This document shows positions 9,923 to 49,903 of a stretch of DNA of 64,000 nucleotides, piece after piece. The stretch is from Pseudomonadota bacterium (GTDB lineage Bacteria > Pseudomonadota > Alphaproteobacteria > Caulobacterales > Hyphomonadaceae). How positions within the stretch are numbered: position 1 is the first letter of the stretch; each line of letters starts with the position of its first letter. The notes beneath the pieces were generated by a model, which worked only from the letters and a program-made list of their open reading frames with translations, was not told the origin of the DNA and did not search any database. Location: the NCBI GenBank assembly GCA_038526245.1, contig JBCBGZ010000009.1, positions 1,874-65,873 on the forward strand, written 5' to 3'. The position numbers and the translations under genes are program-made.

Positions 9923-11042
9923 CGGCGAGAGCACTCACCGCACGGTCACTGTCGGGCTCGGCGCCCGCAGCTACGACATCACAATTGGCCCGGGCCAACT
10001 CGCAGGTATCGGCGCCGTACTCGCTCCCATGGTGAAGAGCCCACGCGTCTTTGTATTGACCGACAAAACCGTTGCTGAACTGCATCTGCAAACCCTGGAA
10101 ACCGCGTTTTCAGGGGTGGGATTCAAGACCCATGCGCGGATCATTCCTGCGGGCGAGGCTTCGAAATCCTGGGCCGAACTGGAAACAACGCTCGATTGGC
10201 TTTTGGAAGCTGGCGCCAATCGAGGTGACGTTTTGGTGGCCCTGGGCGGCGGGGTTGTGGGCGACCTGGCCGGGTTTAGCGCATCCATTATGAAGCGCGG
10301 TATGTCGCTCGTTCAGGTGCCGACCACTCTGCTGGCCCAGGTCGACAGTTCGGTTGGTGGCAAGACCGCCATCAATACGCGCCAGGGCAAGAATCTGGTT
10401 GGGGCATTCTACCAGCCCCGCCATGTCCTGATCGACACTGACCTCCTTACAACACTTCCAGCGCGCGAACGCGCCGCAGGCTATGCCGAAATCGTCAAGT
10501 ACGGCTTGCTCGGCGATGCGCCCTTCTTTGATTGGCTTGAGCGCCATGGAGAAGCAGTCACCGCATTGGAAGCTGGCCCGCTCAGCGAAGCCATTGCGCG
10601 TTCCTGCCAGGCCAAGGCCGACATCGTGGCACAGGATGAACGTGAAGGCGGCGTGCGCGCGCTTTTGAACCTTGGCCACACCTTTGGCCACGCGCTAGAG
10701 GCAGAGAACGGTTATGGGCCAGATCTCCTCCATGGCGAGGCTGTTGCGTGCGGAATGGCATTGGCCCTGCGCTATTCGGCGCGGCAGGGGCTGACGGACA
10801 CGGCCACCGCCGCGCGCGCGGAGAGCGTTTTGAAATCGGCCGGTCTCGTCACGCGCCTCCCAGCGCTCGCCGGAGGTCCCTACCCTGCCGACCGGTTGGT
10901 CGAACACATGCGCCATGACAAGAAAGCCCGCGGCAATGCCGTCCCACTGATCCTTGCGCGAGGGATCGGCAAGGCTTTCATCCACCCCGACGCGAACTTA
11001 AGTGACGTCGAAGACTTTCTCAGCGAAGAGGCAAGGCCGTAA
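9915..11042 (+). CDS. aroB: 3-dehydroquinate synthase AroB
   Basis: [46 protein letters not shown] 9915 overlaps the aroK stop by 8 nt. Confidence 0.95.
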
Positions 11043-17210: not shown

Positions 17211-19973
17211 CTATTCGGGGCCTGTTGTGTCCTCTGGCGTCTCGGAACATGTCGCAAAGCCGTCCAGGCACAGCGCATCGTGCAGGGCCGGGATCTGGTG
17301 GTCCACACGGCGCAGGATCGGCTCACCGGCATCACCAAGCAGCCACCCCAATGGAAGGTCCACCGGACGGGGCTTGTAAACCGGGGTTTCACTGGCTGTA
17401 TCGCCATAGGCGTCCCGGCCGCCACACACTTCATCGGCTTGCGCCTGAAGCGGTGAGGTCAGCCACTGGTATCCGGAAGAAGATACATCCTCCTTGAAAG
17501 CAACTTGGAAACGCGGGTCGGGTCCATCGCAATCATCAGCCGGTCTTGCGCTAACTGGATCAGCGAGAAACCCATTCAAATCTTCGCAGTGGCTGTCTCC
17601 TTCTGCTAATCGATCGCCTTCAATCGTTCGGCAGAGCTGGGCAATAGGCACCTGGCCATGGGCGCCCCGCGCCTTGAGAACACCGTTCAGTGGGACCGCA
17701 AAATCGAAAAAGGCGGGCAAGCGCGCTTCGGGCAAATCGCCGGGCAAACCGCGATAATTGATGTGAAGCACCACGATCAGCTTATCAGGCGCGATGCGGC
17801 GAAGTTGGGCAACTGCGCGCTGGATGCCCGCAGCGCCGGAATTGTCATAGTAGCCGCCATCGATGAAAGGCCCTGCGCCCCGTTGATCGCAATCCACATT
17901 GCCAGGGCACAACCGCCCCGGTGGACTGATCAGCGGAAAGCGAGCGGACATATGCGCAGCGCTTGCGACATCGAGATAGGCTCCCGGCGTGCTCCCTGGT
18001 TCGATCACGTCCAGAACGTTCCAATAGGGATAGGCATTGGCCCAGCCGGGTTCTTCATCGAGGTCGGCGCCCGAAAGACGATCTCCATAGCGGACATTGC
18101 TGACAATCGCAGGCTGACCTGATCGAACATCAAACGTGTTGAACACGACGATGGGCGGTGCTCCCCCAGATCCGAGCTCGCCACCTGTTCCACTGGCAAG
18201 GGCAACCGCTTCAAGAAAGCCCAGGGCGGGGGCTTCCAGATCGGCCTCCCCGTCTCTGAGATCGGCATCTGTCTGACGGAAGCCCTGCCGGAAGGAGTCT
18301 TCGAACACGCCTGCCCGATCGAACTTGTCTTTGAAGCTGCAATCGGTGAACACGCACCAGCTGATGTTCATTGGAAAGTCGCGCAGCATGAAGCCGGACA
18401 TGAGGGGAGAGAAGAAGTCTTTCTGCAGGAAGCTGGTGGTCAGCAGAGGGAGATAGGATCTATCCGGTCTGACCTCGTTGCTGGGGCTGAACGCGAAATC
18501 ACAGCCACCCGTTTGCGCCTCCAATGCGCGGAACTGATTGCCGCGGTTCATTTCCGCCCGCGCGCTCAAATAGGCCCCGAGGCCCACCGACCCGCCGGAA
18601 ACGCCCGACATGGCAAAAATCGAGTCGTAGAATTCGGTGTCCTGGGAATCGAGGCATGTCATTACAGCGGCCGTGTGTAGGGCTGCGCGAATCCCGCCGC
18701 CTTCAGCCAGTACGATGATGGCAGGGGCATCCCTGGCTGCGCGCGCGTCGACCCATGACTGGACCGCTTCATCAACATTCTGAACAGATAGATCGTCGCG
18801 CTCTGCGACCGACTGGATCTGAATGTTGTGGTAGTTCGACGTCCCCACAGCGCCGGATAGGATCGCCACGCCCAGAATAAAGAATGCGAACGGCATGCTT
18901 TCACGGCGAGCATTCAGATAAGCGAAAAACGCGAATACACCGCCCAGCGCCAAGAGGCACACCAGGAGCGTCGCAACGGGGCCGGCGAAACCAGCGACGG
19001 CAGCAGGTCGCAAGGCAAAACCCAGCATCAACGCGGCGAAAACGACCACAAAAGCCCAGGACACACGTGTTCGGCGCCGCCCATACACAAAGAACTGGTT
19101 CGTATTCGAGTAGAACTGGCGCATCATCCAGGTCGTGGTGTTGGCGGTGGTCCAGAGGATCGACAACAAAAGGGCAGCCAAAGAGACATAAACCCCGGTC
19201 GCAGCGCTCGAGGCAAAATCGAGCGTACGCAATCCGTTTCGAACCGTTTCCATGACGGGGCCCGCCAGCACGCCGGACGTGAAAGCCAGCAGCCAAACGA
19301 TAATCAGTGCATTGAGGAGCCAGATCGCCGTGGTCTCAACGGCGCGCAGCCATGCGCTCGGTTTTGGATTGCGCCAGGCAGGCGTCGAGAAATCGTAGAT
19401 GGCGCTGGCGATGAATACCAGCACGACGCCATAGCCAATCCGGGCGCGCACATCGCCAATCCAGCTAAAGGTGCTTTCCTGATATTCGACCCAATTCTGC
19501 AGGTAGAACAGAAGCAATGCGACGGGTAACGCCAAAGCCGCAACCGCCGCCACACGAAACCTTGCCCGCAGACGCGGCTCTGCCCGGCTTGAAAACGGAT
19601 AGTATACGTTGATCGAGCGAAGGACCGCTTCATGCACGGCAGCGGAAAAAAACATGAGCGCCAGGAACGAGCATACCATGCGCCAATGCCCGCCCGGGTA
19701 ATTCAGGCTCACCGAGTACTTTAGCGCTTCTCGGCCCTGGCTCGTGCCTGTTGCAATCAACAATGCCGCCACAACCGCCGCCAGAATGGGCCATGCGGTC
19801 CGGACCATGTTCAAATAACTGGTCAAAACCGACCAGCGCGTGGGTTTATCATTGTTCCAAATGGCCTGCAGGGCGGGCCAAAGGCCCTGACTCATGGGCC
19901 GTGTGAATGTGTCTGTCAGGTCATCGGCAATAGCCGACACTTTCAGGTGAGAAGAACCGCTCTGATCTGTCAT
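17211..19973 (-). CDS. polytopic membrane protein with patatin-like phospholipase domain and Cys-rich C-terminal region
   Basis: About nine hydrophobic segments in the first ~370 aa. Patatin motifs follow: IIVLAEGGGIRAAL (oxyanion GGGxR), AMSGVSGGSVG (GxSxG) and FIDGGYYDNSG (catalytic Asp-Gly-Gly). There are 12 Cys after the TM region. GAGG SD overlaps the upstream stop. Confidence 0.8.
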   Translation of the reverse strand: MTDQSGSSHLKVSAIADDLTDTFTRPMSQGLWPALQAIWNNDKPTRWSVLTSYLNMVRTAWPILAAVVAALLIATGTSQGREALKYSVSLNYPGGHWRMVCSFLALMFFSAAVHEAVLRSINVYYPFSSRAEPRLRARFRVAAVAALALPVALLLFYLQNWVEYQESTFSWIGDVRARIGYGVVLVFIASAIYDFSTPAWRNPKPSAWLRAVETTAIWLLNALIIVWLLAFTSGVLAGPVMETVRNGLRTLDFASSAATGVYVSLAALLLSILWTTANTTTWMMRQFYSNTNQFFVYGRRRTRVSWAFVVVFAALMLGFALRPAAVAGFAGPVATLLVCLLALGGVFAFFAYLNARRESMPFAFFILGVAILSGAVGTSNYHNIQIQSVAERDDLSVQNVDEAVQSWVDARAARDAPAIIVLAEGGGIRAALHTAAVMTCLDSQDTEFYDSIFAMSGVSGGSVGLGAYLSARAEMNRGNQFRALEAQTGGCDFAFSPSNEVRPDRSYLPLLTTSFLQKDFFSPLMSGFMLRDFPMNISWCVFTDCSFKDKFDRAGVFEDSFRQGFRQTDADLRDGEADLEAPALGFLEAVALASGTGGELGSGGAPPIVVFNTFDVRSGQPAIVSNVRYGDRLSGADLDEEPGWANAYPYWNVLDVIEPGSTPGAYLDVASAAHMSARFPLISPPGRLCPGNVDCDQRGAGPFIDGGYYDNSGAAGIQRAVAQLRRIAPDKLIVVLHINYRGLPGDLPEARLPAFFDFAVPLNGVLKARGAHGQVPIAQLCRTIEGDRLAEGDSHCEDLNGFLADPVSARPADDCDGPDPRFQVAFKEDVSSSGYQWLTSPLQAQADEVCGGRDAYGDTASETPVYKPRPVDLPLGWLLGDAGEPILRRVDHQIPALHDALCLDGFATCSETPEDTTGPE

Positions 19974-19981
19974 GTCCGACC

Positions 19982-21298
19982 TCAGAGCTCATCTGTTGTC
20001 TGGGACAAGTCTTCCAGCCGCCGGGGCGCCTCGATGCGTCGGAACGCCTTCGTAATCAGGCGCTCATCCTCATCGGTATAGCCCAGCAGTGCGACGCCCT
20101 TAATCTTGCTGTTCGCAATTCGCTCCGGCGAGAAGTAGGCCACGATGGCTCGGACCATCTCCATCGCGTTTCTTTCCGCTTTCTGGGGAGATGCGTAAGA
20201 GCCGATCAAGGGAATGATCACGGTTCTCAGGGGCTGTTGGAACCGTGTCTTGTTGCTGTCGTCCATCGCGCTGAGCACGCCTGTGACGCATTTCGCAATC
20301 TTGTCGCCGGATACCGCTCTATACCCAGCACCGGGTTCGCGGCCCTTCAATTCCACCGCAGCAACATGGGCGACGGCTTTCACCAGATTCACGCTCTTGA
20401 GGTCCCCCTTGGTGGACGTGAGCTGTGCAAACCCTGGCTCTACGGGCCCAGCAGGCAGTTTCTGCGCCACTTGCCGACGCATGAAATCATCGCTGCGCGT
20501 GCCGCCACCCGTCCATTTCGATGACAGATGCCGAATTGTTCCCGAGATAGACGTATCGAACACGCGGGCCATTTCGAGGTGGGTGTTCTCCGGGTTCACC
20601 CAGACATCGACCCCCTTCACCATGCGGATATCACCGACTGCAATCGCTACGCGCGGGCTATTGGCCAAGCCGCTCAACGCATACTGTCGATACTGCGGCG
20701 CCTTACCCTTTTTTCGGTCTGATCCACGCAAGGAAACGGAAAGCGCTTCAAGGTCTTTGTAGACGGGGCTGAACCGCTCACCGGCGACGGTCGGTCCCAT
20801 CGCCTCAATGACCTTCGCCTTTACCCGGCTGCGAACGTCGGCCTCCTGTTCCGCATCCTGACCGGCATAGAGTGCAATATCGGCCACGGGTCGCGGGTAT
20901 GACACCATGCGATAGTGCTGGTTTCGATCAATCGCGATGGCGGGCCCCTTCGACAGGACGAGCCGCATACTGAGATAGCTCAGAGCGCGGTGATCATAGT
21001 CGGTCACATCTGCAATGCAGAGTTCAGCCAGATGCATCGCTCGGTAAGCCATCTCCATATCGGCATCGGAGCCGGCAAGGCGACGATTTAAGCGTACAAC
21101 CTGGATCGCTCGCCCAAGCGTGGCCTCAGCCTCGCTGATGGCCGGCAAAATCACCCGTTCCTGAAACGCCTTCGCCTTTCTGTGCGCTTCATGATCGAAC
21201 GGGCTGATGAGGACAATGTCTGCCTCGTCAATGTCCTGTCGCGTGGCGAGTTCTTCGTCCAGCGCCGGTTCGTCCCCCGAATGGCTGTCGTTGGACAT
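19982..21298 (-). CDS. two-domain protein: nucleoside-2-deoxyribosyltransferase/TIR-like Rossmannoid N-domain + divergent macro domain
   Basis: N-domain: IVLISPFDHEAHRKAKAFQERVILPAI...AELCIADVTDYDH...SKGPAIAI. C-domain: VAIAVGDIRMVKGVDVWVNPENTHL...GFAQLTST...AVAHVAAV...TVIIPLIGSYASP, which aligns by eye with the macro pattern GDIT..VD.IVNAAN / G.A..T / H.VGP / S.AFP.I.TG but lacks the GGG loop. Start set at ATG 21298 (AGAGGG SD). Confidence 0.6.
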   Translation of the reverse strand: MSNDSHSGDEPALDEELATRQDIDEADIVLISPFDHEAHRKAKAFQERVILPAISEAEATLGRAIQVVRLNRRLAGSDADMEMAYRAMHLAELCIADVTDYDHRALSYLSMRLVLSKGPAIAIDRNQHYRMVSYPRPVADIALYAGQDAEQEADVRSRVKAKVIEAMGPTVAGERFSPVYKDLEALSVSLRGSDRKKGKAPQYRQYALSGLANSPRVAIAVGDIRMVKGVDVWVNPENTHLEMARVFDTSISGTIRHLSSKWTGGGTRSDDFMRRQVAQKLPAGPVEPGFAQLTSTKGDLKSVNLVKAVAHVAAVELKGREPGAGYRAVSGDKIAKCVTGVLSAMDDSNKTRFQQPLRTVIIPLIGSYASPQKAERNAMEMVRAIVAYFSPERIANSKIKGVALLGYTDEDERLITKAFRRIEAPRRLEDLSQTTDEL

Positions 21299-21333
21299 GT
21301 CACCCTCTTGCATGTGCGTCCCCTGAAAAAAAG

Positions 21334-22245
21334 CTACCGGGCGGATTGAGCGTTGCAGAAGAACGTCAGCCCGCGCTCCAATTGGCCAGCGCATGCCGGT
21401 GAGCGCTCGTCGCCATCGCTGGCGCACGCCGACCCCGCGGGCTCAATGGCCAGGACACTGGCCACATCTGCGGCGGCATAAATGTAGCCATTGCGAGCAA
21501 ACACCGCCGAATTGTCCCCTGTCTGGGCGCGTGTCCGCATCGTGTTCAGCCATGTGGGGCTGCCCGACTGCGCTGCAGCGTTGAAGGCGCAGGCATTGGC
21601 AATCTGGCGCTCAGAGATCGGTGTCAAATCCTGATCGCCCAAAGGAAACGCTGAGATGGCGTCCTGGTAGGTGGGCCAGTCCTGGGTCACGGCGACACCG
21701 TAGCTCTCCGCACTGGCCTTGGCGGCCTCGGCATCATCATTGGAGACAGCAGCCTCGAATTCAGCCAGCGCCGTTTCGCTGCCATTGAGGACCTGCACCA
21801 TGGTGCCTGCAGCGCAACGATAGCCGAGGCGGGGGTCCGCTGTTCCGTCACCACAGGCTTCCTGAAGCGCCGATGTCGCCGAAAGCACTTCCGTGCGATA
21901 GGCGCCAACAGCGTCAGCGCCAGCGGGCGTCATCATCGCTGCCATGTCGTAGGCGTTCGCTGCGATGGACAACCAAACCAGGCGCGCATCACTGTCATCG
22001 GCAGCCGCATCGGCCTTGCCATTGGCATCTTCAGCCAGCGCTGCCATGGCATCGACTGCAGCCTGTAGAGCCTCCGGCGTGTCGGCTCCAAGGGCATCCT
22101 CAGCGTGCCCTTCAAGCCGGCTGTCATAGCCCGAAGTCAGGTTGAAAATGTTCATCCCGGTCACGGTGCCGCCGTTATCGGTGGTGGCACACCCGGCCAG
22201 AACGATGGAAGCGGTTGCCAGGAGGGCTGCGAAACGGTGGGTCAT
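21334..22245 (-). CDS. Ala-rich lipoprotein of unknown function
   Basis: Lipobox MTHRFAALLATASIVLAGC, six further Cys, GAAGGAG SD. The start overlaps the upstream stop (ATGA). Confidence 0.7.
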   Translation of the reverse strand: MTHRFAALLATASIVLAGCATTDNGGTVTGMNIFNLTSGYDSRLEGHAEDALGADTPEALQAAVDAMAALAEDANGKADAAADDSDARLVWLSIAANAYDMAAMMTPAGADAVGAYRTEVLSATSALQEACGDGTADPRLGYRCAAGTMVQVLNGSETALAEFEAAVSNDDAEAAKASAESYGVAVTQDWPTYQDAISAFPLGDQDLTPISERQIANACAFNAAAQSGSPTWLNTMRTRAQTGDNSAVFARNGYIYAAADVASVLAIEPAGSACASDGDERSPACAGQLERGLTFFCNAQSAR

Positions 22246-24431
22246 CCAAGGGCTCCTTCACGGAAGACGGGATTGATTACGGGGCCATCGGTCGGGCTCT
22301 CGCCGGGGGCCGTTGGAGGTGAGGTTTCCGAGAAGACCGATTCCGTCTCCGGCTCGGGCCCAGATGGGCCGTCACTGGCAAGCGCTCGACGTTCGGCATT
22401 CAGAACAATGTCAGCAATTTTGGCGGGCGGAATCGCTTCCGACGGGTTTGCGATTGCGTCTGCGGCAAACCAGCGGAACGCATACACCCAATCATCGGCA
22501 GTCAGGCTTCGTCCCCCCAACAGACTGCTGTCCGCCGCCATCTGGTTCAGTGTCCCGATAAAGTTCAGCAGGGCCGGAAGGGTCTGGGGTTCTGCAAGGC
22601 GCCTGGCATTGGAAACCGCCGTGTCCAGCACAGCCATCAGCGCCCGTGTCAGCGTTTCGCCAAACATGAGACGCCCACCTTCGCGCGCCAAACCGCCCGT
22701 GGCCTGGTCCTTCAGGCTCGCCGAGGCTGTGCCCAGCACCTGGGTGATCAGTTGAACGGCCAGGTGTTCATGCGGGCTGTTTGCGTTGAGGCTGAACAGT
22801 GCGCCGGGGTTCTGCATCGCCAGGTCCGTTGCCTTGGCAGACACACGTTTCCAGTCGCGGCGCGTGAGCAATGATGCATGTTCGCTGGCGATAAACGCGG
22901 CAACGCCCTCGGCGATGCGCACCACTTCGTCATTCACGTCATTGGGCAGGATCATACCCGGTGTCTGGGCGGCCTGATCGGCAATGATGCCAACCACTTC
23001 CATGAGAAAATCCAGGTCTGCATCCAGCGGAAGGACATTGACGGAAACGCCCTGGTCGCTGAACCGCGTGATCATTCCGTTGGCAATGCGCGTGACAATC
23101 TTGATGCCCACCGCCGCCCAAGGCTCTGCATCACCGGTGGCCGTGGCATTGCTGGCTTGGGCGCTGCTGGTCCATGCGGCGAGTTCCTGACGGGCTTCGT
23201 CGACAAGGAAAGTGCGGGCATGCTTGCGGGTAATCTGCATCCCCATTTCGAACAGGGCCTGGGTCAGTTTCGGACTCTTCTCGACCGTCAAATGCGTGTG
23301 CAGAGCGCCCATCATGGAGGTCAGCAATTCCTGACCGCCGACGACATGCTGGCCCTTGCCGCGCACGAACGCCTCGGGCGACTCCGACACGGCCTGCAGC
23401 ACGAGCGGGAAACTGCGGCGCACAAAGCCGGGCGCAAAGACCTGGCGGATATCGTCAGGCGACGCCTGGGCCTGGTCGATCACGCCCTGGAAAAGGGCCT
23501 CGGTCACGACGCCCGCTGCCTCGGTCTTTTCAGGATAGTTGTCGAAGAATAGGCGCCGGTTTTCGTGCAGCGACTCCAAAAGACCCATTGCGATGGGACC
23601 ACGCAGAGTCTTGCGGACGGAGTTGAACCGCTGGAGCGTGGACATGCCCTGTCCAGAATTTTCCACGTTTAACGTGCGCAGGGGCTCTGCCACAGCCGAC
23701 ACCAGGCTTTGAACGTGTTGTTCTTCAGAAAACAGCTCGGGCCGGGCCGCGGCCATATCGAGGCTGGTAGAAATGAACATGTCCAGCATACGCTTGGGCA
23801 TGCCTGCCGAAAAGGCTGTCTCGACGAACTGGTCCTTTCGGGTGTCGAAATAGGTGTTCAGACTGGACGCAAGAGTCGCAACGACGCCCTGGGCGTCGGG
23901 CCCTACACCAAGCTTATGACTGCCGGCCGACAGGACGGAGAAGCTCAGCTGGATTGCAGAAAAGAGAATGGAATTTCGATCCCGCCGGGCAGCGTCCGCG
24001 CTGTCCCAATTCTTGATCTCATGGAGAAAGAACTGATCCCTAACATTCATATCCGGACGCACATCACTGGGCACGGGGCCAAACCGCTCGTCCCAGAGAC
24101 CATCGGCCTTCGACAAGCGCCCCAGGATTTCAGCGATCAGGTCCGAGCGGCGACCAGCGTCCGCATCTGCGGAGATAAAGAAACTGAACTCATCGGCGTC
24201 GATAACGTCGGCGTAGCGAGGACGGATGTCGGAAAACACGCCCTGGGGGCCGAAAAAGTCTTCATTCGACAGGAGCGCCGTCGCCACGGCTTCCGGGTTA
24301 CGGGGCGCGACCTGGGGGATAAGCACCACCATGTCCTGCAATTGGGCGCGGGTGTCGATAAACTCGCGGACCGACTGGCTCATGCCGAATATAGCCCGAA
24401 CGACCCCAAGAATACTCGTGGTTGCCAGCAT
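22242..24431 (-). CDS. 729-aa hypothetical protein (no TM, no recognisable motif; Pro/Ser/Glu-rich tail)
   Basis: Long ORF with a strong SD (GAGGAGGGAAG). Its codon pattern is consistent with its neighbours. I saw no P-loop, nuclease or protease signature. Confidence 0.65.
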   Translation of the reverse strand: MLATTSILGVVRAIFGMSQSVREFIDTRAQLQDMVVLIPQVAPRNPEAVATALLSNEDFFGPQGVFSDIRPRYADVIDADEFSFFISADADAGRRSDLIAEILGRLSKADGLWDERFGPVPSDVRPDMNVRDQFFLHEIKNWDSADAARRDRNSILFSAIQLSFSVLSAGSHKLGVGPDAQGVVATLASSLNTYFDTRKDQFVETAFSAGMPKRMLDMFISTSLDMAAARPELFSEEQHVQSLVSAVAEPLRTLNVENSGQGMSTLQRFNSVRKTLRGPIAMGLLESLHENRRLFFDNYPEKTEAAGVVTEALFQGVIDQAQASPDDIRQVFAPGFVRRSFPLVLQAVSESPEAFVRGKGQHVVGGQELLTSMMGALHTHLTVEKSPKLTQALFEMGMQITRKHARTFLVDEARQELAAWTSSAQASNATATGDAEPWAAVGIKIVTRIANGMITRFSDQGVSVNVLPLDADLDFLMEVVGIIADQAAQTPGMILPNDVNDEVVRIAEGVAAFIASEHASLLTRRDWKRVSAKATDLAMQNPGALFSLNANSPHEHLAVQLITQVLGTASASLKDQATGGLAREGGRLMFGETLTRALMAVLDTAVSNARRLAEPQTLPALLNFIGTLNQMAADSSLLGGRSLTADDWVYAFRWFAADAIANPSEAIPPAKIADIVLNAERRALASDGPSGPEPETESVFSETSPPTAPGESPTDGPVINPVFREGALG

Positions 24432-24477: not shown

Positions 24478-25839
24478 TTACTTCGGCGCCACCTCGGGCG
24501 GAAGCGTGCCGATAACCCGGCCCGGTGGCGGCTCACGATGCTGGTCGCTCCAGGCGTCTTCTTCTTCGCTCAATTCAACTTCCGTCCCGCGCCCCAACAC
24601 GGTGAGGTAAGCCCGCTCCAACTCCGCCGGACGCAGGTCCAGCGGGCGGCGCACGGCGCCCAGCCGGTCTGCCGGCACAGTGGCAGTTACTTCAGCTTGC
24701 GGCTTTGAACTCCCCGGTACAGGAGAACTTAGAGTCAGGCGTGCCATCGGCGCCACGATCGCTGCCCCGCGCGCAAACAAGCGGAACCAGAACGGCGCCC
24801 CGAGACCCAGCAGCCCCCCTCCGATCAAAATGCCAACCAACCACATCGTAAAGGTGCCGGGATTGTTCCAGATCGCCACGCCGCGATTGCCAACATGGCC
24901 GGCGAGCGTGCCAATCGAGTGGGACGATGACGACGCCTGCAGATAGTCACCATAGCTCTGCTGCCACGAAACTGTTTTCGCCTCGCCGCGCTCTAGCTCA
25001 ACATTACAGCGGGTATCTCGATAGGTTTCGGCATCGGCCTCCGACGCAACCACGAAGCCCTCACAATATGGGAACATCTTGCGCCCGACGGGCACGCCCA
25101 TGTCGAGGAACGTTGTCTTCAGCCCTTGCAGGTCCGGCGAGTTCAGCGCGGCAGAGATCTGCGTGGTCGCGCCCTCTTCCGTTAGGTTCTGGGCCTGCTG
25201 AAAGCTAGACGACTCTGCCAGCGTGGACAGCCGCGCCGACAGCGTCGCATTGGTGGCAAGCTCCTTATAGAGCGTGATCGCATCGAGATTGACGAAGAAT
25301 GCAACCGCGATCCCGGCCAGCACCGAGACCATGTTCGCACGGGAGCGGAAATACTCCGTCTGGGCTTCGCCGATCCGCTCAAACTCATAGGCCGCAGCTG
25401 TCAGCGCACGTCGCAAGCGCGGGCGATCGTGGCGCGCGAGAGCCTGGCCCTCAGGCGTTTCAGCAAGCCGCTCAATGAACTGTAACGTACTCATCTTCTG
25501 GACGCGCGAAGACAGTATCTGGCCAATCAGCGGCCAGCGCCGAATGTACCAGGGCCTGAGGTTCTCCGAAGCCGCGCGCCGGGTCATTGAATGGGCGAAG
25601 TTTCGGCTGTCGGCGGATGCCACATGGCTCCCGGTGGCGCCGGGCGCGCTTTGCTCAGGCGGCGTATCATTGGGTTGCAGGTTGGCGAGTTTCTGGTCGT
25701 AGAAGTTTCGCAGCATCTCGGACATGCCGGCGCTGCGCAGGGCAAACATCTTGTGGATGCCTTCGACAACCACCGACACGATTGTGGAATAGACCGCAAC
25801 GACCGCTGCAAATCCGACCAGTGCGAGGAGCAACGCCAT
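24478..25839 (-). CDS. 453-aa membrane protein of unknown function (about 3 TM)
   Basis: TM segments MALLLALVGFAAVVAVYSTIVSVVV, MVSVLAGIAVAFFVNLDAITL and MWLVGILIGGGLLGLGAPFWF. It is the first gene of the five-gene operon. Confidence 0.65.
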   Translation of the reverse strand: MALLLALVGFAAVVAVYSTIVSVVVEGIHKMFALRSAGMSEMLRNFYDQKLANLQPNDTPPEQSAPGATGSHVASADSRNFAHSMTRRAASENLRPWYIRRWPLIGQILSSRVQKMSTLQFIERLAETPEGQALARHDRPRLRRALTAAAYEFERIGEAQTEYFRSRANMVSVLAGIAVAFFVNLDAITLYKELATNATLSARLSTLAESSSFQQAQNLTEEGATTQISAALNSPDLQGLKTTFLDMGVPVGRKMFPYCEGFVVASEADAETYRDTRCNVELERGEAKTVSWQQSYGDYLQASSSSHSIGTLAGHVGNRGVAIWNNPGTFTMWLVGILIGGGLLGLGAPFWFRLFARGAAIVAPMARLTLSSPVPGSSKPQAEVTATVPADRLGAVRRPLDLRPAELERAYLTVLGRGTEVELSEEEDAWSDQHREPPPGRVIGTLPPEVAPK

Positions 25840-25938
25840 TTGGGAATCCCACCCTTAGTTTCACTCAAACTGGACGGGACTAAAGCATTGAGGCACTGTC
25901 CTGACAACTTTTCAGTAACTTTTTGGCAGGGGACGCCC

Positions 25939-26868
25939 GTGGCCCAAAATCTCCAGGTGACTGCCCGCAGTGGGCTGAATATTCGACGTTTCCCCGTGGA
26001 TACTGCAGATCGGCTCGCCGCAATGCCCCGCGGAATGGTCGTTGAACCCCTCGATCCGCTGGTGTGGAACGGTCGATGGCGCCGTATCCGGGCCACGTTT
26101 TCCACTAATGCGGTCGTAGAGGGATACAGTGCGGTCGACTATCTGAGCCCCGTTGGAGTTTCTGCCTCGAACACGGTCCGTGTGGCACCGGTGACGGGAA
26201 ACACCCATGCGGGGGGCAGCGCGGCAACGAACACTCAACCGACACCGTCACGCCCTGTGCCGCCGCCCCCTAGCCGCAAGGATCTTGTCCGCCGCGCCGT
26301 GCCAGCCTCCCTCGTGGCAGGCCTTTTCCACCATTCCGTTGCCGATAATGTTGAACGCTATCTGCCGCTGGTCCTCGATGCCATGCGCGAGGCTGAATTG
26401 GACGATTGGCCCCACATCATAACAGCCCTGGGCACGATCAAGGCTGAGACCGCCGGGTTTGATCCCATCGCGGAGTACGAGTCCCAGTACAATACCGAGC
26501 CGGAAGGGCGCCCCTTCGGAAAGTATGATTTCCGCACAGACATCGGCAACAATGCCGAAGGAGACGGCTATAAGTATCGTGGACGCGGCTTCGTCCAACT
26601 CACCGGCAAGGACAATTACCGGCGCTATGGCGAGCGCCTCGGCATCGACTTGGTCAACGATCCGGACCAAGCGCTGCAACCTGATATCGCAGCGCGGATC
26701 CTCGCGACCTTTATGCAGGATCAGAAAGACCGGATTGCACAGGCCTGGGCGTCTGAAGACTGGGCGGACGCGCGCAAGGCTGTAAATGGCGGTCGCCACG
26801 GCCTTGAGGCATTTGAGAAAACCGTAAAGGCAGCACGCACGATTTTCGATTGGTCAAAGCCGATCTGA
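25939..26868 (+). CDS. SH3b-domain + GH19-like (chitinase/lysozyme-type) peptidoglycan hydrolase, no signal peptide
   Basis: N-terminus: LQVTARSGLNIRRFP...GMVVEPLD...WRRI (SH3b-like). Pro-rich linker: QPTPSRPVPPPPS. C-terminus: IKAETAGF...GDGYKYRGRGFVQLTGKDNYRRYGERLGIDLVNDPDQ (GH19-type endolysin motif). Start placed at in-frame GTG 25939, because the ORF-track start at 25591 overlaps the divergent gene. Confidence 0.7.
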   Translation: MAQNLQVTARSGLNIRRFPVDTADRLAAMPRGMVVEPLDPLVWNGRWRRIRATFSTNAVVEGYSAVDYLSPVGVSASNTVRVAPVTGNTHAGGSAATNTQPTPSRPVPPPPSRKDLVRRAVPASLVAGLFHHSVADNVERYLPLVLDAMREAELDDWPHIITALGTIKAETAGFDPIAEYESQYNTEPEGRPFGKYDFRTDIGNNAEGDGYKYRGRGFVQLTGKDNYRRYGERLGIDLVNDPDQALQPDIAARILATFMQDQKDRIAQAWASEDWADARKAVNGGRHGLEAFEKTVKAARTIFDWSKPI

Positions 26869-26963
26869 CTCGATCCCTGGCGCAGTTCGCCCCAGGATCA
26901 ACGCGCCCCCGCCCCAGCCATGCCCCATTCAGACGGGAAAGTCTCCGAAACAGGGAGACGCCC

Positions 26964-27695
26964 ATGAAACGCACGCTGATTTCCATCGCCGCCGCCTTAT
27001 TGCCCGCCACGCTGGCCGGCGCTGCGCCATTCGAAGAAGGGGACACACACATGCACTCATACATCTTGCTCGACCGCACAGGCTCCATGTCCAGCATCTG
27101 GGACGAAGCGCTGACCTCCGTGAACGCCTATGCAAAAACTGTGGGCGAAGAGCGCGAAGGCGAGGCGCCCGATACGCTCAACACAGAAATCACGCTCGCA
27201 GTCTTCGACCACCAGGGCGGGCTGCAGTACGATGTTCTCCGCCGCAAGAGCGATGCCGACAGCTGGCAGGCCGTCACCTCGGACGAGGCCAGCCCGCGCG
27301 GAATGACGCCGCTGTTCGACGCCATTGGCCGGACTGTTTCCATGGCCGAGGCCGACAATCCTGAGCGCGCCGTCATCGTCATCATGACCGATGGCCACGA
27401 AAACGCCTCGCAGGAATTCACCAAGGACACCGCCCGCGCTGCGCTGGACCGCGCCCGCGCCAAGGGCTGGGAAGTCATTTTTCTGGGGGCCGATTTCGGC
27501 CAGTTTGGCGACGCAGAAGGTGTTGGCATGGCCCAGAGCAAGGTGATGGGCATGAGCGCTGGCACCATGCAGGAATCCATGCAACGGCTGGCCACCAAGG
27601 CCCGCGACTACGGCACCGGCGAAGAAGCCGAGGTGAACTTCAACGACGAAGACCGCGCCATCGCTCGCGAAAACGATGTGAAAGGCGAACGGTAA
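26964..27695 (+). CDS. secreted von Willebrand factor A (vWA) domain protein
   Basis: Signal peptide MKRTLISIAAALLPATLAGAAP. MIDAS-like LLDRTGSMS...MTPLFDAIG...VIVIMTDGHENAS. ATG 26964 has AGGGAGA upstream. Confidence 0.8.
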   Translation: MKRTLISIAAALLPATLAGAAPFEEGDTHMHSYILLDRTGSMSSIWDEALTSVNAYAKTVGEEREGEAPDTLNTEITLAVFDHQGGLQYDVLRRKSDADSWQAVTSDEASPRGMTPLFDAIGRTVSMAEADNPERAVIVIMTDGHENASQEFTKDTARAALDRARAKGWEVIFLGADFGQFGDAEGVGMAQSKVMGMSAGTMQESMQRLATKARDYGTGEEAEVNFNDEDRAIARENDVKGER

Positions 27696-42784: not shown

Positions 42785-43813
42785 CTAGATCTCGAAGTTG
42801 ATCATGTTGCGCATCACCATGATGCCGCAGAACATCCAGAAGGCACCGCCTGCCAGGAAGGTATGCCCGAGGGATGTGGTGAAGAGTTTCATAACGTATT
42901 CGGGGGTGGTCATGTAGACCATGCCGCCCACGGCAAACGGCAATGAGCCGATAATCATGGCGGACGCTTTCGCCTCCGACGACATCGCCTTGATCTTCTC
43001 ACGCATCATTTTGCGCGACCGGATGATGCTTGAGAGGTTGCCAAGGGCTTCCGAAAGGTTACCGCCCGACTTGGACTGAATGTTCAGCACGATGACGAAA
43101 AAGTTCACCTCGGGCAGCGGGACGCTCTGGTAGAATTTTCCCAATGCCTGCTCGACTGTGTTGCCCATACGGATGTTGTCCGACAGCTGTTGGAATTCCG
43201 TTGAGAGCGGATCGGGGCTTTCCCGCGCAATAATCTGAAGACATTCGTTCAATGGCAGGCCGGATTTCACACCCCGCACAATGATATCGATGGCATCGGC
43301 AAACTGGTTGGTCAGTTTCTTGTTCCGCATGCCTGCCAGAAAGCCCAGCAGGAAACGTGGCAGCCCCAGGAAGCCTGCAAAACCGGCCGCGAAGATCACG
43401 ACAGGCCGCGAGCGCAGCTCAATGCCGCTGACGGTGGCGCCATCCGCGCCGGAAATGTAAGCCACGGTGGCCGCTGTCAGCCCCAACACCACGGAGGCGA
43501 TCCAGAACGCCGATATTGGAACGTCCAGGCCAGCCTGCTTTAGACGCGAGCCGATATCGCGCGGCATGATTGAGCGCTTCCGGGCTTCGTTCTCCGTGCG
43601 TAGCCGGTCGAGCATCTGCTGTGTCTGGCGACGCCGGCTATCCTGCTTTTCATTGCGCGCCTTGCTCACGCGATCTTTCTTGTCGCTGGAAAGTTGCTTG
43701 GCGCGCTTCGCAACCGCTTCGCCCGATCCACCACCGGCAAAGGCCAGTCCAACCCCTGCGATTGCAAGGAACGCCAATCCAGCAATGCCGTATATGATCA
43801 GGTCTTCGTTCAT
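42785..43813 (-). CDS. tadB: type II secretion F-family inner membrane protein TadB
   Basis: T2SSF domain (FADAIDIIVRGVKSGLPLNECL...) and its position after cpaF. Confidence 0.85.
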   Translation of the reverse strand: MNEDLIIYGIAGLAFLAIAGVGLAFAGGGSGEAVAKRAKQLSSDKKDRVSKARNEKQDSRRRQTQQMLDRLRTENEARKRSIMPRDIGSRLKQAGLDVPISAFWIASVVLGLTAATVAYISGADGATVSGIELRSRPVVIFAAGFAGFLGLPRFLLGFLAGMRNKKLTNQFADAIDIIVRGVKSGLPLNECLQIIARESPDPLSTEFQQLSDNIRMGNTVEQALGKFYQSVPLPEVNFFVIVLNIQSKSGGNLSEALGNLSSIIRSRKMMREKIKAMSSEAKASAMIIGSLPFAVGGMVYMTTPEYVMKLFTTSLGHTFLAGGAFWMFCGIMVMRNMINFEI

Positions 43814-43816
43814 ATC

Positions 43817-45259
43817 CTAGCCCAACTCGTCCAGCGCCTTGGCCAGATCACTTTCAAGGTTGTAGTACGACGCACGTTCCCAGAAGCGGGGGCGACCAAT
43901 ACCCGTGCCCCTGTGGGCACCCTTCACCTTGCCGTTCTCATCCTCGCCGTCGATTTCGTACTTCAGCACGTCCTGGAGAATGACGGTGTCACCTTCCAGG
44001 CCCATCACTTCGGTCACGTTCATGATCTTCCGGGAGCCATCGCGAAGGCGCGACGCCTGGACCACAATGTCGATCGAGCCGACGATCATTTCGCGGATCG
44101 TTTTCGCAGGCAGCGAGAAGCCACCCATGGTGATCATCGATTCCACACGGCTCAGCCCCTCGCGCGGGGTGTTGGCATGCAGGGTTCCCATGGAGCCATC
44201 GTGACCTGTGTTCATGGCCTGCAAGAGGTCGAACGCTTCCGGCCCACGCACCTCGCCCACGATGATCCGCTCAGGACGCATCCGCAGGCAGTTCTTTACG
44301 AGATCGCGCATGGAAATCTCGCCAGACCCTTCAATGTTTGGTGGGCGGGTTTCAAGGCGCACCACGTGGGGCTGCTGGAGCTGCAATTCCGCGGAGTCTT
44401 CGCAGGTGATGACCCGTTCACCGGGCTCAATGAAACCCGTCAGGCAATTCAGCAGGGTGGTTTTACCAGAGCCCGTACCGCCGGAAATCAGAACATTGCA
44501 ACGCGAATGACCGATGATTCGAAGGATTTCAGCGCCTGCGGGAGAGATTGAACCGAAATTCACAAGGTCCTGAAGGCGCAGCTTGTCCTTCTTAAACTTA
44601 CGAATGGTGAGTGTTGGCCCATCAATGGCCAGCGGAGGCGCGATGACGTTCACACGCGAGCCATCCAGAAGACGCGCGTCACAGATGGGAGAGCTCTCGT
44701 CCACGCGTCGGCCAACCTGGGACACGATGCGCTGACAGATGTTCATCAGCTGGGCGTTGTCGCGGAACCGGATATTGGTCCGTTCAATCTTGCCGCTAAC
44801 CTCAATGTAACAAGTATCCGCACCGTTCACCATGATATCGGCGATGTCGTCGCGGGCCAGAAGCGGCTCTAGCGGGCCGTAGCCGAGCACGTCGTTACAG
44901 ATATCGTCGAGCAGTTGTTCCTGCTCTGAAATCGACATCACCACGTTCTTGATAGCGATGATTTCGACGACGATGTCGCGGATTTCCTCGCGCGCACTTT
45001 CCGGATCAAGCTGCGCCAACTGCGCCAGATCGATAGTGTCGATCAGCGCATTGAAGATGGTCATCTTGGTTGTGTAGTACGCCTCAGAACGGGTATCGAC
45101 GTCGCGAACCGGCTCAGGCTCAGCCTGGGGAACAGGCGCTTTGGCTACAGGCTTCTTTGGCTCCGGCGCAGGCGCTTTCGCTTCAGGTTTCGGCTTCGGC
45201 GCCGCCTTCGGACTCGGCGCGGTCGCAACGCCGCCAGCTTGTTTCTTGCCAAATCCCAT
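43817..45259 (-). CDS. cpaF: Flp pilus assembly ATPase CpaF/TadA
   Basis: Walker [25 protein letters not shown], and a TadA-type secretion ATPase core. The N-terminus is Ala/Pro/Lys-rich. Confidence 0.95.
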
Positions 45260-45276
45260 GGTTCAGCCCGCGCTCC

Positions 45277-46719
45277 CTACTTACCCATCAGCTTGGCAAG
45301 CAAGCTCTTGGTGGGTTGTTGCACTGTCTGGCCACTGATTGCCGAGGCGAGGTGATCAATCGCCAGGGATGGTTTGGATGCCGGGTCGGTCTCGGAAATC
45401 ATCTGGCCATTATTGGCCGCAATCCCGAACAGGTGCGGATCGAACGGCAGCACAATCTCCGGCTCGAACCCAATAGCCGCAGCGAAATCCTTCACGGGGA
45501 TTTCCGGGCGCTTCGGAATGCCGACCATGTTCAGAACCAGGCGGGGCGCGGTATCATTGGGCCGCTCGGCCGTCAGCTGGTCAATGATGTTCTTGCCATT
45601 GCGCAGGGATGCGAGATCGGGTTGGCAGACAATGACCAACTCATCGGCATCCACCAGGGTTTGCATCACCCAGGGGTTCCAGGCGTGCGGCAAGTCGAGG
45701 ATGACATAGGGCGTGTTGCGGCGCACGGTTTCGATCACCTTGCCGTAGGCCTCGGTGGGGATCTCCGGCATGTCGGCCACGGTTGCAGGCGCAGCAAACA
45801 GCGAAAGCCGGTCTGTGGCGCGGGCGAGAAGGCGATTGACCACGGCTTCGTCGGCGCGGTCCGGGTCGAGCAACGCGTCCACGACGGTCTGCGCAGGATC
45901 TTCGTTGAAATCCAGCGCCGTGGTGCCGAAGGATACGTCAAGGTCGACCAGAGTCGTGTTGCGCCGGGCATTTTCTGCCATGGACCAGGCCAGGTTGTGG
46001 GCGATGGTCGAGCTGCCAACGCCGCCTTTGGCGCCGACCACGGCAATCGAGCGACCCAGGAACGGCGCATCGGGGTCCGTAAACAGGTCAGAAATTGATC
46101 GAATGATTTGCAGCGGCTGGATGGGCGGAACCAGATACTCGCTGACGCCGCGCGCGACGAGTTGACGATAGAGCGGAATGTCGTTCGTCGCGCCGATGAC
46201 CATAACTTCGACGCCTTCGTCGCAATGTTCCGCGAGGCGGTCGATTTGAGCCACCATTTGGGGACCCGGCGCAGTGCTTTCGATCAGCAACAAATTGGGC
46301 GTGGCGTTTTCCGTCAGATAGGCCGTTGCAGCTTCAAGACCGCCTTCGAACACCTCTACGCTGGCACGGTTCATGCGCCGATCGCCGGCCATCGCTTCAA
46401 TCAGTTCACGCGTTTCGCTGTTCTCGATGAAGGCAAGAACGGAAATTGCCGGGATGGGTTTGTCTCCCATCTCGGGCACAAGGTCCGGCAGCTCAGCAAC
46501 AGGCTCGCTGGATGAGGTGTCTTCGCTCTCGAACGGGGTCAGCTCTTTCGCGGGAGGATCAAGATCAACGCCGACAGTCTGGTCGTCGGCCACGTCTTCC
46601 ACGGCACTTTCAAGCCCTTCCAGGCCCAAATCGGTGTCTTCGGTCTCGAGGTCGATATCGTCAAAGGTTTCGAGATCGAAGTCGAAATCGTCTTCAAACA
46701 GTGCGCTGTCTTTTCCCAT
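45277..46719 (-). CDS. cpaE: pilus assembly protein CpaE/TadZ (receiver-like + MinD/ParA-like ATPase)
   Basis: VVGAKGGVGSSTIAHNLA (deviant Walker A). Strongly acidic N-terminus (DFDFDLETFDDIDLETEDTDLGLEG). Confidence 0.9.
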   Translation of the reverse strand: MGKDSALFEDDFDFDLETFDDIDLETEDTDLGLEGLESAVEDVADDQTVGVDLDPPAKELTPFESEDTSSSEPVAELPDLVPEMGDKPIPAISVLAFIENSETRELIEAMAGDRRMNRASVEVFEGGLEAATAYLTENATPNLLLIESTAPGPQMVAQIDRLAEHCDEGVEVMVIGATNDIPLYRQLVARGVSEYLVPPIQPLQIIRSISDLFTDPDAPFLGRSIAVVGAKGGVGSSTIAHNLAWSMAENARRNTTLVDLDVSFGTTALDFNEDPAQTVVDALLDPDRADEAVVNRLLARATDRLSLFAAPATVADMPEIPTEAYGKVIETVRRNTPYVILDLPHAWNPWVMQTLVDADELVIVCQPDLASLRNGKNIIDQLTAERPNDTAPRLVLNMVGIPKRPEIPVKDFAAAIGFEPEIVLPFDPHLFGIAANNGQMISETDPASKPSLAIDHLASAISGQTVQQPTKSLLAKLMGK

Positions 46720-46761
46720 CGAACCTACTCCAAATCCTACTGACGCCGGTTACGGGCGTGT

Positions 46762-47439
46762 CTATCCGCCTACGCCGACCGCTTCGCCGCCGCCCCAATT
46801 GCCTGACCGATATGCTTCCATCACAATGGAGACCCTGGAGTTCTCACCAGGGCTGATTTCACGCCGCGAGAGCAAATCGCCGGGATCGGCGAGCATCATC
46901 GCGATATTGTTGCGTACCGCGCAGCCATAATAGGCCGGCTCATTGTTGCTTGAGATGTCTGACATGTCATAGGCCGCGAGAGAGAGACACTCCGGCGCCA
47001 CGGCTTCATAGGCGTCAAACGCCAGCAAAATGGGCGCGTTGGCGCCGTTGGCATTGTAGGCTGAGCCGGAAATTTGTTCCCAGGAAATCCCGCTTTCCCA
47101 AGCCAGGTTGCGCACGTTTTTCAGCGCTTCAATCGATGCGTCCGGGTAGAGCCCGTTTTCCGGCATCGCCATGACAAGCTCGCCGTGGCCGCGGTCGCGA
47201 TAGGCGGCAACGAACCGCTCCAGCGCGCGACGATCTGCCAGGCGCAATTCTGGATAAAGCGGGTTGATCTCGATCTCGAGCACTTCGGTAACGCGCTCAA
47301 CGCCGATGCGATTGTTATCGAACGGCAAGCCCTCCAGCTGCACGTTCTCCGGCAGCGCGAGATCATTGTTCGAACAGGCGCCGACAGCTGCCAGCGCGGC
47401 GCCGGCCAGGAGGAATTTGGAGAGTTTCGTAACGCTCAC
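46762..47439 (-). CDS. cpaD: pilus biogenesis lipoprotein CpaD
   Basis: Lipobox LAGAALAAVGAC. Size and position between cpaC and cpaE fit. The C-terminal YYGCA motif resembles CpaD. Confidence 0.7.
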   Translation of the reverse strand: MSVTKLSKFLLAGAALAAVGACSNNDLALPENVQLEGLPFDNNRIGVERVTEVLEIEINPLYPELRLADRRALERFVAAYRDRGHGELVMAMPENGLYPDASIEALKNVRNLAWESGISWEQISGSAYNANGANAPILLAFDAYEAVAPECLSLAAYDMSDISSNNEPAYYGCAVRNNIAMMLADPGDLLSRREISPGENSRVSIVMEAYRSGNWGGGEAVGVGG

Positions 47440-47450
47440 GGGAGGGTCTC

Positions 47451-48935: not shown

Positions 48936-49813
48936 CTCCCACCCAATTCTTCGACCTGGTCGACGGTCACATCGCCATTTCGATAGACACGGACTTCCGA
49001 TTCCTCGCGAATGTCAGCGAACTCATCGGTTGGCAGGACGTCGATCAAGAAGTCGGTCCGCGCCATAGTCGGCCCGCCTTCAACGAAATCCTGGAGCGAC
49101 CTGAGCGTCATCGTGACGGCCCCAAGACGATCGGCAAGGATGAGCAGTCTGGCCTGTTCGGGATAGAGCTCTACGGTCGCGGTTGAACCAATGGCGAACT
49201 GTCCGCCAGTTCCCTCTCCGAAAGCCTGGTCAATGGCAAGAACCCTCACATTTTCAATGAGCGTCAGGGTCGTTGGACGCGCCTCCTCGACGCCGTCCAC
49301 CAGCACTTGGACTTCCATGGAGATGTGCACGTCCACATGGTCGCCGGGCAAGATGAAGCCACCCGAGGCCCGGTCCACCGAAATCTCGACGGAAACCGCT
49401 CGCATACCGGGCGTAATCAGCGCGGCCATGTAGCCAGCCTCGCCCTTCTGCACGATTTTGTGTGGCAGGACAGGTTCGTTCTCGACCATCGATTTGCGCA
49501 CCACCGAGTTCGACAGGTCTTCGTTCGCGGATGGAAATACGTCCTGGGTAAAGTAGTTGATGTTGATGGCTTCATCGGGCCACTCTTTCCAGGCGAAATC
49601 CGTGGGGTAGAGCAGTTCTCCAACCGCAACGTCTCGCGTGACCACCAGAACCGGGGTTTGGGGTACTTCGATCACCTCAGTCACCTGAACCGGTGGCGGG
49701 GCGACCTCGACCGGGGTTGGCGCAGGCTGCTGAGCCATGTTGCGCACCAGGAACGCGGCACCAGCGGCGGCGCCAGCCGCGATCAGGAGAATGATGATTC
49801 GCATTGGTGACAT
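48932..49813 (-). CDS. cpaB: Flp pilus assembly protein CpaB (SAF domain)
   Basis: N-terminal TM MRIIILLIAAGAAAGAAFLV. Position and size fit. GGAGGA SD. ATGA overlap with cpaC. Confidence 0.85.
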   Translation of the reverse strand: MSPMRIIILLIAAGAAAGAAFLVRNMAQQPAPTPVEVAPPPVQVTEVIEVPQTPVLVVTRDVAVGELLYPTDFAWKEWPDEAININYFTQDVFPSANEDLSNSVVRKSMVENEPVLPHKIVQKGEAGYMAALITPGMRAVSVEISVDRASGGFILPGDHVDVHISMEVQVLVDGVEEARPTTLTLIENVRVLAIDQAFGEGTGGQFAIGSTATVELYPEQARLLILADRLGAVTMTLRSLQDFVEGGPTMARTDFLIDVLPTDEFADIREESEVRVYRNGDVTVDQVEELGGS

Positions 49814-49890
49814 GGTCGATCCTCCAAACTCGGCCGGTACATCGGGCAGCCTTCCCGTATGAGCGCGTTTTAGGTGCCGTGCGCTAAGGC

Positions 49891-49898: not shown

Positions 49899-49903
49899 TG
49901 GGC

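Follow-up and report, generated by a model that had tools for sequence, protein, structure and literature searches.

The macro-patatin locus

Within a 64,000-nucleotide (nt) stretch of a Hyphomonadaceae genome (contig JBCBGZ010000009.1 of assembly GCA_038526245.1; this whole stretch is referred to below as the window), we analysed a minus-strand gene for a protein of 438 amino acids (aa), in which a domain of the nucleoside 2-deoxyribosyltransferase (NDT)/TIR class is followed by a macro domain, together with the gene directly downstream, which encodes a polytopic membrane protein with a patatin-like phospholipase domain. The two genes and their principal elements are as follows:

19982..21298 (-): coding sequence of the 438-aa two-domain protein, with an ATG start at 21298
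20789..21226 (-): NDT/TIR-class (DrHyd-like) Rossmannoid domain, residues about 25-170 (AlphaFold2 (AF2) model, Foldseek, profile links to the PF05014/PF10137 families)
20963..20980 (-): S107-Y-L-S-M-R112, opposite the family motif Y-E-L-G-V-R (family alignment)
19994..20695 (-): C-terminal macro domain, residues 202-435 (AF2 model, Foldseek, profile, hhalign)
20624..20635 (-): G222-D223-I-R, opposite GDIT of YmdB (family alignment, hhalign)
20537..20596 (-): macro loop 1, N235-PENTHLEMARVFDTSISG-T254, in place of NAAN...GGGVD (family alignments, hhalign)
20186..20212 (-): macro loop 2, P363-LIGSYAS-P371 (subfamily alignment, hhalign)
17211..19973 (-): 920-aa polytopic membrane protein with a patatin-like phospholipase domain (open reading frame (ORF), motifs, transmembrane prediction, PF01734 matches of orthologues)
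18687..18701 (-): patatin oxyanion-hole motif GGGIR, aa 425-429 (invariant in nine orthologues)
18591..18605 (-): patatin nucleophile motif G-V-S459-G-G (invariant in nine orthologues)
17835..17861 (-): patatin catalytic Asp motif D705-GGYYDNSG (DGGY and DNSGA invariant in orthologues, the residue between them being Y or F)

The 438-aa ORF lies within a longer minus-strand ORF of 481 aa that opens at a GTG (19982..21427), and an additional ATG is present upstream at 21313. An AGAGGG Shine-Dalgarno-like site is located a few bases 5' of the ATG at 21298, and the orthologues all align starting at the corresponding Met. Twelve full-length homologues, with identities of 26-99%, show that the ORF is conserved; the window is 99% identical to a contig of a Pseudomonadota metagenome-assembled genome (JBCBUL010000001.1), in which this gene product bears the annotation 'hypothetical protein'. 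These observations confirm that the ORF is a real gene. Pfam, PADLOC and NCBIfam scans of the protein and its four co-directional neighbours returned no match at an E-value of 1 or below, a single-sequence search of the PDB with the 438-aa protein produced chance kinase matches only, and a promoter and terminator scan of the 16.8-26.4 kb region gave a count no higher than that expected by chance.

The ORF of the partner begins 8 nt past the TGA of the macro gene, and its product carries at least eight hydrophobic segments within aa 56-378. All three patatin signatures (GGGxR, GxSxG and DG[GA]) are present, while PF01734 (Patatin) is matched by orthologues of the partner and not by the window's own protein. 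The gene for the transmembrane patatin is found directly 3' of the macro gene in 14 of 14 loci of groups A and B and in five of five loci of group C (19/19; the three groups are described below), and the 8 nt gap seen in the window is replaced by an overlap of 1-14 nt in other loci. The 14 group A and B loci comprise eight species, retrieved in a pattern-based search across 185,579 species genomes, together with metagenome contigs. The group A/B protein is rare and patchy in its distribution, occurring in only eight of the genomes scanned.

Folds and motifs of the two halves

The C-terminal half of the protein is a macro domain. A full-length AF2 model based on a 64-sequence alignment (predicted local distance difference test score, pLDDT, 90.6; predicted template-modelling score, pTM, 0.87) displays the three-layer α/β/α macro fold, and Foldseek matched residues 202-435 to macroH2A1.1, Af1521 and TTHA0132 with E-values of 1e-9 to 1e-6 and target TM-scores of 0.75-0.84. 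The alignment profile matched TTHA0132 (2dx6) at 2.8e-10 and macroH2A1.1 at 1e-5, and hhalign aligned the entire domain with Escherichia coli YmdB at 96.7% probability (E 5e-10). PF01661 is carried by homologues, the window protein itself being without a Pfam match. Beyond generic viral macro domains and a single phage CMP hydrolase, a search of BFVD by fold contributed nothing further. An earlier interpretation of the locus, made without database searches (the sequence-only reading), had assigned an NDT/TIR-like and a macro domain to the two halves by eye; the profile and structure searches performed with each half recovered both folds.

The ligand-binding motifs of the macro domain are partly retained and partly replaced. 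The Asp of the GDI(T) strand of macro domains contacts adenine, and the equivalent G222-D223 is invariant in a 12-sequence family alignment. According to hhalign, N235-P-E-N is positioned opposite NAAN of YmdB, and, following a four-residue insertion (ARVF), DTSISGT is positioned opposite GGGVDGA, which bears out the earlier claim that the Gly-rich loop has been lost. The position of the MacroD catalytic Asp (GGGVD) is taken by Ser252, which is invariant. In loop 2, Y-A-S-P is opposite GVYG of YmdB (within STGVYG), and the subfamily consensus of PLLGxGxxG is likewise not preserved in the window protein.

Across 64 subfamily proteins with a mean column identity of 18%, a total of 19 columns are invariant, among them N235, E237, N238, M243, R245, S252, R256, D271 and H311, and the S-x-S of loop 1 (S250, S252) is invariant or near-invariant. 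Since the motif MAR....S-I-S-G is invariant across this subfamily, the replaced loop 1 is not the product of decay. The 64 proteins appear to describe a distinct macro subfamily with a pocket of its own. Elsewhere, this subfamily is fused to HTH_31 (13/64), TIR_2 (16/64), NB-ARC or SARP domains, and such fusions to interchangeable output domains suggest that it represents a ligand-sensing module.

Residues about 25-170 adopt a β-α Rossmannoid fold, both in the full-length AF2 model and in a model of the N-domain only (pLDDT 85.3). The best PDB matches identified by Foldseek are the CMP N-glycosidase MilB, DNPH1 and the TIR domains of MAL, TLR10 and L6, and the assignment of a flavodoxin-like β-α fold on this basis relies on weak matches. 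The evidence from sequence comparison for membership of the NDT/TIR class is stronger than that from fold matching. Profile searches with the N-domain revealed 3408 cluster representatives at an E-value of 1e-3 or below, of which just four derive from its own tight family, and found relatives at E-values of 1e-24 to 1e-10. When 60 distant relatives were scanned against Pfam, matches included Macro (17), TPR-S (14), Nuc_deoxyrib_tr (PF05014; six, the best at E 1.4e-7), CAP12-PCTIR_TIR (PF10137; six) and NUDIX (three). The link to PF05014 and PF10137 is transitive, the window protein having no direct Pfam match. The DUF4062 TIR-like NADases (10.64898/2026.05.01.722283) were considered and set aside, since the 60 relatives match 52 Pfam families, the 25 commonest of which do not include this one. 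With 17 of the 60 relatives carrying a Pfam Macro domain, NDT/TIR-like-macro proteins are widespread, and the fusion is not the unusual one that it was initially taken to be.

The glutamate of the ELG motif is, by homology, the catalytic residue of NDT, MilB, DNPH1 and TIR enzymes, and this homology is established knowledge (PMC11204291). The motif [FY]ELG[IV]R is kept in 48 of 48 scored NDT-like-macro relatives without patatin linkage, which include proteins of Hyphomonas, Anaerolineales, Acidobacteriota, Burkholderiales and Accumulibacter, among others. In the patatin-linked proteins the glutamate (that of YELG in NDT, MilB and DNPH1, and its equivalent in TIR NADases) is absent, its position being occupied by Tyr108 in the window protein, by Phe or Ala in the orthologues, and by Val or Ile in group C. 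Further N-domain motifs (MPFG of β1, and R.DE) are altered or absent in these proteins, group C lacking MPFG. Patatin linkage is distinctive of the glutamate-less branch. The sequence-only reading, which implied a working NDT/TIR enzyme and noted degeneration in the macro domain alone, is not supported on this point, as the N-domain is degenerate as well.

Gene orders and the wider family

The macro-patatin pair is accompanied in the window by the following genes:

21334..22245 (-): g303, 303 aa, lipoprotein-like N-terminus (LAGC), no known family; found alongside the pair in groups A and C
22242..24431 (-): g729, 729 aa, soluble, no known family (ORF, homologue loci)
24478..25839 (-): g453, 453 aa, three predicted transmembrane segments, no known family (ORF, transmembrane prediction)
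25840..26868 (+): peptidoglycan-hydrolase-like gene (SH3-like and Glyco_hydro_19-like), divergent; start uncertain

The peptidoglycan-hydrolase-like product is either SH3/GH19-like or VanY-like. Its mechanical ORF runs from 25591 and thus shares ~250 nt with the 5' end of g453, which is encoded on the other strand; the true start is probably the TTG at 25840 or the GTG at 25939, because homologues align only from about residue 119. Single-sequence PDB searches with the patatin protein, g729 and g453 provided nothing useful. Among the loci examined, homologues of g729 were seen solely in those that carry the macro-patatin pair.

Three gene orders were distinguished. In group A (the window and the loci labelled L008, L009 and L001-3), the peptidoglycan-hydrolase-like gene is divergent from g453, g729, g303, the macro protein gene and the transmembrane patatin gene, in that order. 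Group B, which consists of Hirschia litorea, H. maritima and related metagenome-assembled genomes (L010-L014), possesses the pair without the group A accessories, and instead has upstream genes for a VanZ-like membrane protein, a secreted TPR protein and a 220-aa protein (L012 7619-9836). A single-sequence scan with the 220-aa protein retrieved close relatives only, while an alignment query led to the same five pair-carrying genomes and no others. Homology of the group A accessories (g453, g729, g303 and the peptidoglycan hydrolase) to those of group B (the 220-aa, TPR and VanZ-like proteins) was rejected, the hhalign probabilities being below 1%.

Group C was found by way of g729 homologues in unidentified metagenomic bacteria (L093 25-6494, L095 1031-7494, L096, L097 and L098), where the loci adjoin selA/selB. 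Its operon comprises genes for a GH19/SH3 protein, a NUDIX protein, a 420-aa degenerate NDT-like-macro protein and a transmembrane patatin of 1084-1108 aa, and is divergent from the homologues of g453, g729 and g303. In the group C protein, β1 reads CVVVTT and macro loop 2 is canonical (GSGDGG). Groups A and C thus draw on a common set of accessory families but arrange them differently, with a NUDIX gene added in group C, and the recurrence of the same families in different orders argues for a functional unit. The NUDIX gene, moreover, appears to link the patatin-linked branch to the wider family of NUDIX-associated NDT-macro proteins. In a neighbour-joining tree of the macro domains (unrooted and with no bootstrap support), groups A and B form one clade to which group C is adjacent, a topology that would allow the patatin-linked, glutamate-less branch to have arisen just once.

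The cassette does not always occupy the same context, that of L007 and L008 differing from that of L009 and L001. A gene for a VWA-domain protein with a signal-peptide-like N-terminus (26850-27695) adjoins the cassette in the window; its position is conserved in L007 and L008 (84% identity) and not in L009 or L001. Farther away, a run of ORFs at 43800-53300 resembles, on the basis of the translations only, a Tad/Cpa-type pilus cluster that is apparently unrelated to the macro-patatin pair.

Outside the patatin-linked branch, NDT/TIR-like-macro fusions occur in several bacterial phyla and adjoin NUDIX, SIR2 or SIR2-CHAT genes. Several of these glutamate-keeping relatives match the PADLOC 'Effector TIR' model at 1e-6 to 1e-9. 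NUDIX genes are adjacent in L040, L062 and L084, and the NUDIX domain is fused in L074; a SIR2_2 gene is adjacent in L075, and SIR2-CHAT genes in L083 and L084, with a match to the PADLOC ThsA SIR2 model at 1.5e-28. Further neighbours encode a DUF900 α/β-hydrolase (L080), an nSTAND1-caspase (L078) and a ThsB_TIR-WD40 protein (L082). These neighbourhoods look to be conflict contexts centred on NAD and ADP-ribose (ADPR).

Two sets of loci within this wider family are of separate interest. Clusters that combine NUDIX, an intact-glutamate NDT/TIR-like-macro protein and SIR2 or SIR2-CHAT are found in Accumulibacter, Burkholderiales, Anaerolineales and Acidobacteriota (L083 9266-12962; L084 8580-12897; L075 9446-12930; L040 9212-10999; L074 9188-11212), all three nucleotide modules being fused in L074; they are apparently uncharacterised and represent candidate NAD/ADPR conflict systems. 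In addition, about 30 loci of Hyphomonas and other Hyphomonadaceae (L015-L072, match ~10001-10770) encode a conserved NDT-like-macro protein of 430-470 aa with an intact F-E-L-G, situated among housekeeping genes, namely those for cyclophilin, PutA, a TRAP transporter and PEPCK, with no obvious effector partner.

Proposed function and alternatives

We propose, with a probability of roughly 0.45, that the 438-aa protein is a cytoplasmic sensor or adaptor that gates the membrane patatin and is not an enzyme of either parent family. The macro domain, which retains the adenine-contact Asp together with the leading Asn of NAAN and has the family-specific MAR...SxSG loop in place of GGG, would bind an adenine-containing ligand of the ADP-ribose type. 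Ligand binding would alter the state, probably the oligomeric state, of the glutamate-less pseudo-TIR/NDT N-domain, which would serve as a scaffold, and this change would in turn switch on the translationally coupled polytopic patatin, leading to degradation of the membrane. In groups A and C, where the pair is accompanied by a peptidoglycan hydrolase and three envelope proteins, the output is probably demolition of the envelope, which may amount to an abortive-infection-like response or to stress-triggered lysis. The NUDIX enzyme of group C would probably clear basal ligand.

Several observations weigh against this proposal. The PDB fold matches of the N-domain are weak (E 2e-3 to 4e-2, TM-scores 0.5-0.65, none with an E-value of 1e-3 or below), and the invariant polar residues N71, R86, H89, D97, D102 and R112 remain in this domain, leaving room for a remodelled active site. 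The degenerate loop 2 (YASP) of the window's macro domain means that diphosphate binding could be weak. Transmembrane prediction gives eight or nine segments in the partner, which makes the membrane side of the patatin domain ambiguous. As regards the setting, the flanks in the window are housekeeping genes and not a defence island, the GC content of 0.56-0.65 shows no shift at the locus, and the pair is in conserved synteny within Hirschia-type genomes. Finally, no signal generator (an active TIR, SIR2, ADP-ribosyltransferase or cyclase) was recognised in the window operon by Pfam, PADLOC or NCBIfam.

The sensor proposal may be extended to an immune or suicide module that would work along the lines of Thoeris and CBASS without a generator of its own, in which the pseudo-TIR/macro adaptor would read an ADP-ribose-type metabolite made elsewhere, perhaps by enzymes of a phage, through other defences that cleave NAD, or under host stress, and would trigger coordinated demolition of the envelope by the patatin, the peptidoglycan hydrolase and the dedicated envelope proteins. 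A TIR-class enzyme domain would in that case have been turned into a pure scaffold, its effector role having moved to a separately encoded lipase. This extended version is possible, if doubtful.

Alternatively, the macro protein might act in the manner of an antitoxin, constitutively binding and silencing the patatin until its loss, or a ligand-induced release (for example upon a shift in NAD+/ADPR), frees the lipase. The tight two-gene linkage, in which the regulator gene precedes, and is translationally coupled to, that of an enzyme that could be lethal, would suit such a brake, as would the apparent lack of catalysis in both domains. We nonetheless consider it unlikely, given that the macro subfamily is also fused to transcription factors and to effectors of the TIR type, a pattern that points to ligand-dependent switching more than to stoichiometric neutralisation.

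The sequence-only reading had placed a switch and an ADP-ribose hydrolase of altered specificity side by side. The former, located upstream of the lipase, is now favoured by the 19/19 linkage, the abutting or overlapping genes and the fusions to output domains; the latter is neither excluded nor favoured, the catalytic Asp position being Ser and many polar residues being invariant. A working hydrolase with a non-canonical site would act on an ADP-ribosyl group or a related modification or signal, and might in this way reset a signal or free the lipase or a lipid of its modification. Conservation of the polar residues E237, N238, R245, S250, S252, R256, D271 and H311 despite a mean column identity of 18% is consistent with such an activity, and macro domains in TIR systems are predicted to process ADPR derivatives (PMC9503650). 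However, neither the catalytic Asp of MacroD nor the Gly-rich loop is present in the domain, and the window protein has a degenerate loop 2. Fusion to the DNA-binding domains HTH and SARP is more easily understood for a sensor than for an enzyme, and macroH2A1.1, which is non-catalytic, is among the best structural matches. The hydrolase appears improbable.

The chances are also poor that the locus is a housekeeping module of Hyphomonadaceae-type alphaproteobacteria for envelope or lipid remodelling, with its lipase under the control of NAD/ADPR status and no role in conflict. The housekeeping flanks and the conserved Hirschia-type synteny would be in keeping with this idea, as would the envelope nature of the accessory proteins (lipoprotein, transmembrane, VanZ-like and TPR proteins, peptidoglycan hydrolase) and the location of the related Hyphomonas NDT-macro genes among metabolic genes. 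Against it stand the rare and patchy occurrence of the family in the genome scan, the differing contexts of the cassette (L007/L008 versus L009/L001), the classic conflict effectors that neighbour the wider family, and the combination of a patatin with an intact active site and a peptidoglycan hydrolase, which is typical of lytic systems. It is very improbable that the N-domain has stayed catalytic by way of a remodelled site, making or cleaving a nucleotide that the macro domain reads in cis as sensor to its generator, for although N71, R86, H89, D97, D102 and R112 remain invariant and the Pfam and PADLOC scans indicated no other generator in the operon, none of the three patatin-linked groups has kept the glutamate that is near-invariant across the wider family, and β1 PFG and R.DE are changed or absent.

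Comparison with known systems and significance

The sensor proposal shares parts with several characterised systems, none of which it reproduces. In type II Thoeris, macro domains sense His-ADPR or ADPR and oligomerise transmembrane effectors (PMC11204291; 10.64898/2025.12.03.692087). Its ThsB TIR and transmembrane-macro ThsA/ThsC proteins resemble the present pair in the macro receiver of an ADPR-derived ligand (proposed here), the TIR-class domain, the two-gene operon and the membrane-damaging output (likewise proposed). In contrast to Thoeris, the TIR-like and macro domains are here combined on one soluble protein, the TIR-like domain is without its catalytic Glu, and the transmembrane segments are located on a separate patatin enzyme and not on the macro protein. 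The PADLOC ThsA/ThsB models had no match in the window operon, and membership of type II Thoeris was rejected: the operon shows no ThsB/TIR match in Pfam, PADLOC or NCBIfam, its sole TIR-class domain is glutamate-less, the sensor is not on the effector, and the transmembrane patatin has no recognised sensor domain.

Effectors of the TIR-STING and TIR-SAVED types from the cyclic-oligonucleotide-based antiphage signalling system (CBASS) also join a TIR-class domain to a ligand sensor, and the glutamate-keeping relatives match 'Effector TIR' and CAP12-PCTIR_TIR; here, however, sensing would fall to a macro domain, the TIR-like domain of the window's branch is a pseudoenzyme, the effector role has apparently passed to a separate lipase, and there is no cyclase. 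The CBASS patatin CapV is soluble and itself binds the cyclic nucleotide. The lipase of the window differs from it in possessing an N-terminal domain of ~380 aa with at least eight transmembrane segments and a separately encoded sensor, whereas the GGGxR, GxSxG and DGG core and the membrane-destroying output of a nucleotide-sensing system (in our case proposed) are common to both (PMC12480259). CapV-type CBASS was rejected as well, no gene of the operon having a CD-NTase match in Pfam, PADLOC or NCBIfam.

The non-catalytic macro domains of macroH2A1.1 and PARP14, which are binders without the MacroD catalytic residues, are among the best structural and profile matches of our macro domain, although the identity is just 13-20% and the family-specific loop 1 with its four-residue insertion sets our domain apart. 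The clusters of NUDIX and NDT/TIR-like-macro genes (with or without SIR2 or SIR2-CHAT) share the architecture and the macro loop-1 motif of the window protein, and NUDIX with group C; unlike the window branch, which is glutamate-less and paired with a transmembrane patatin, they keep the Glu of [FY]ELG and are paired with NAD-consuming SIR2-type effectors. Literature searches for systems combining macro and patatin proteins found none.

Immunity based on nucleotide signalling, as in Thoeris and CBASS, makes repeated use of macro, TIR and patatin domains, and we did not find described an arrangement in which a soluble pseudo-TIR-macro receiver is combined with a separately encoded polytopic lipase. 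If the sensor proposal is correct, the phosphate loop of the macro subfamily would represent a novel chemistry, perhaps with a ligand that is new as well, and a TIR-class pseudoenzyme would act as an adaptor in bacteria. Nucleotide sensing would, furthermore, be tied to a multi-protein cassette for envelope lysis. The group of NUDIX, TIR-like-macro and SIR2 or SIR2-CHAT clusters is sizeable and apparently uncharacterised, and as a set of candidate NAD/ADPR conflict systems it makes the question experimentally approachable.

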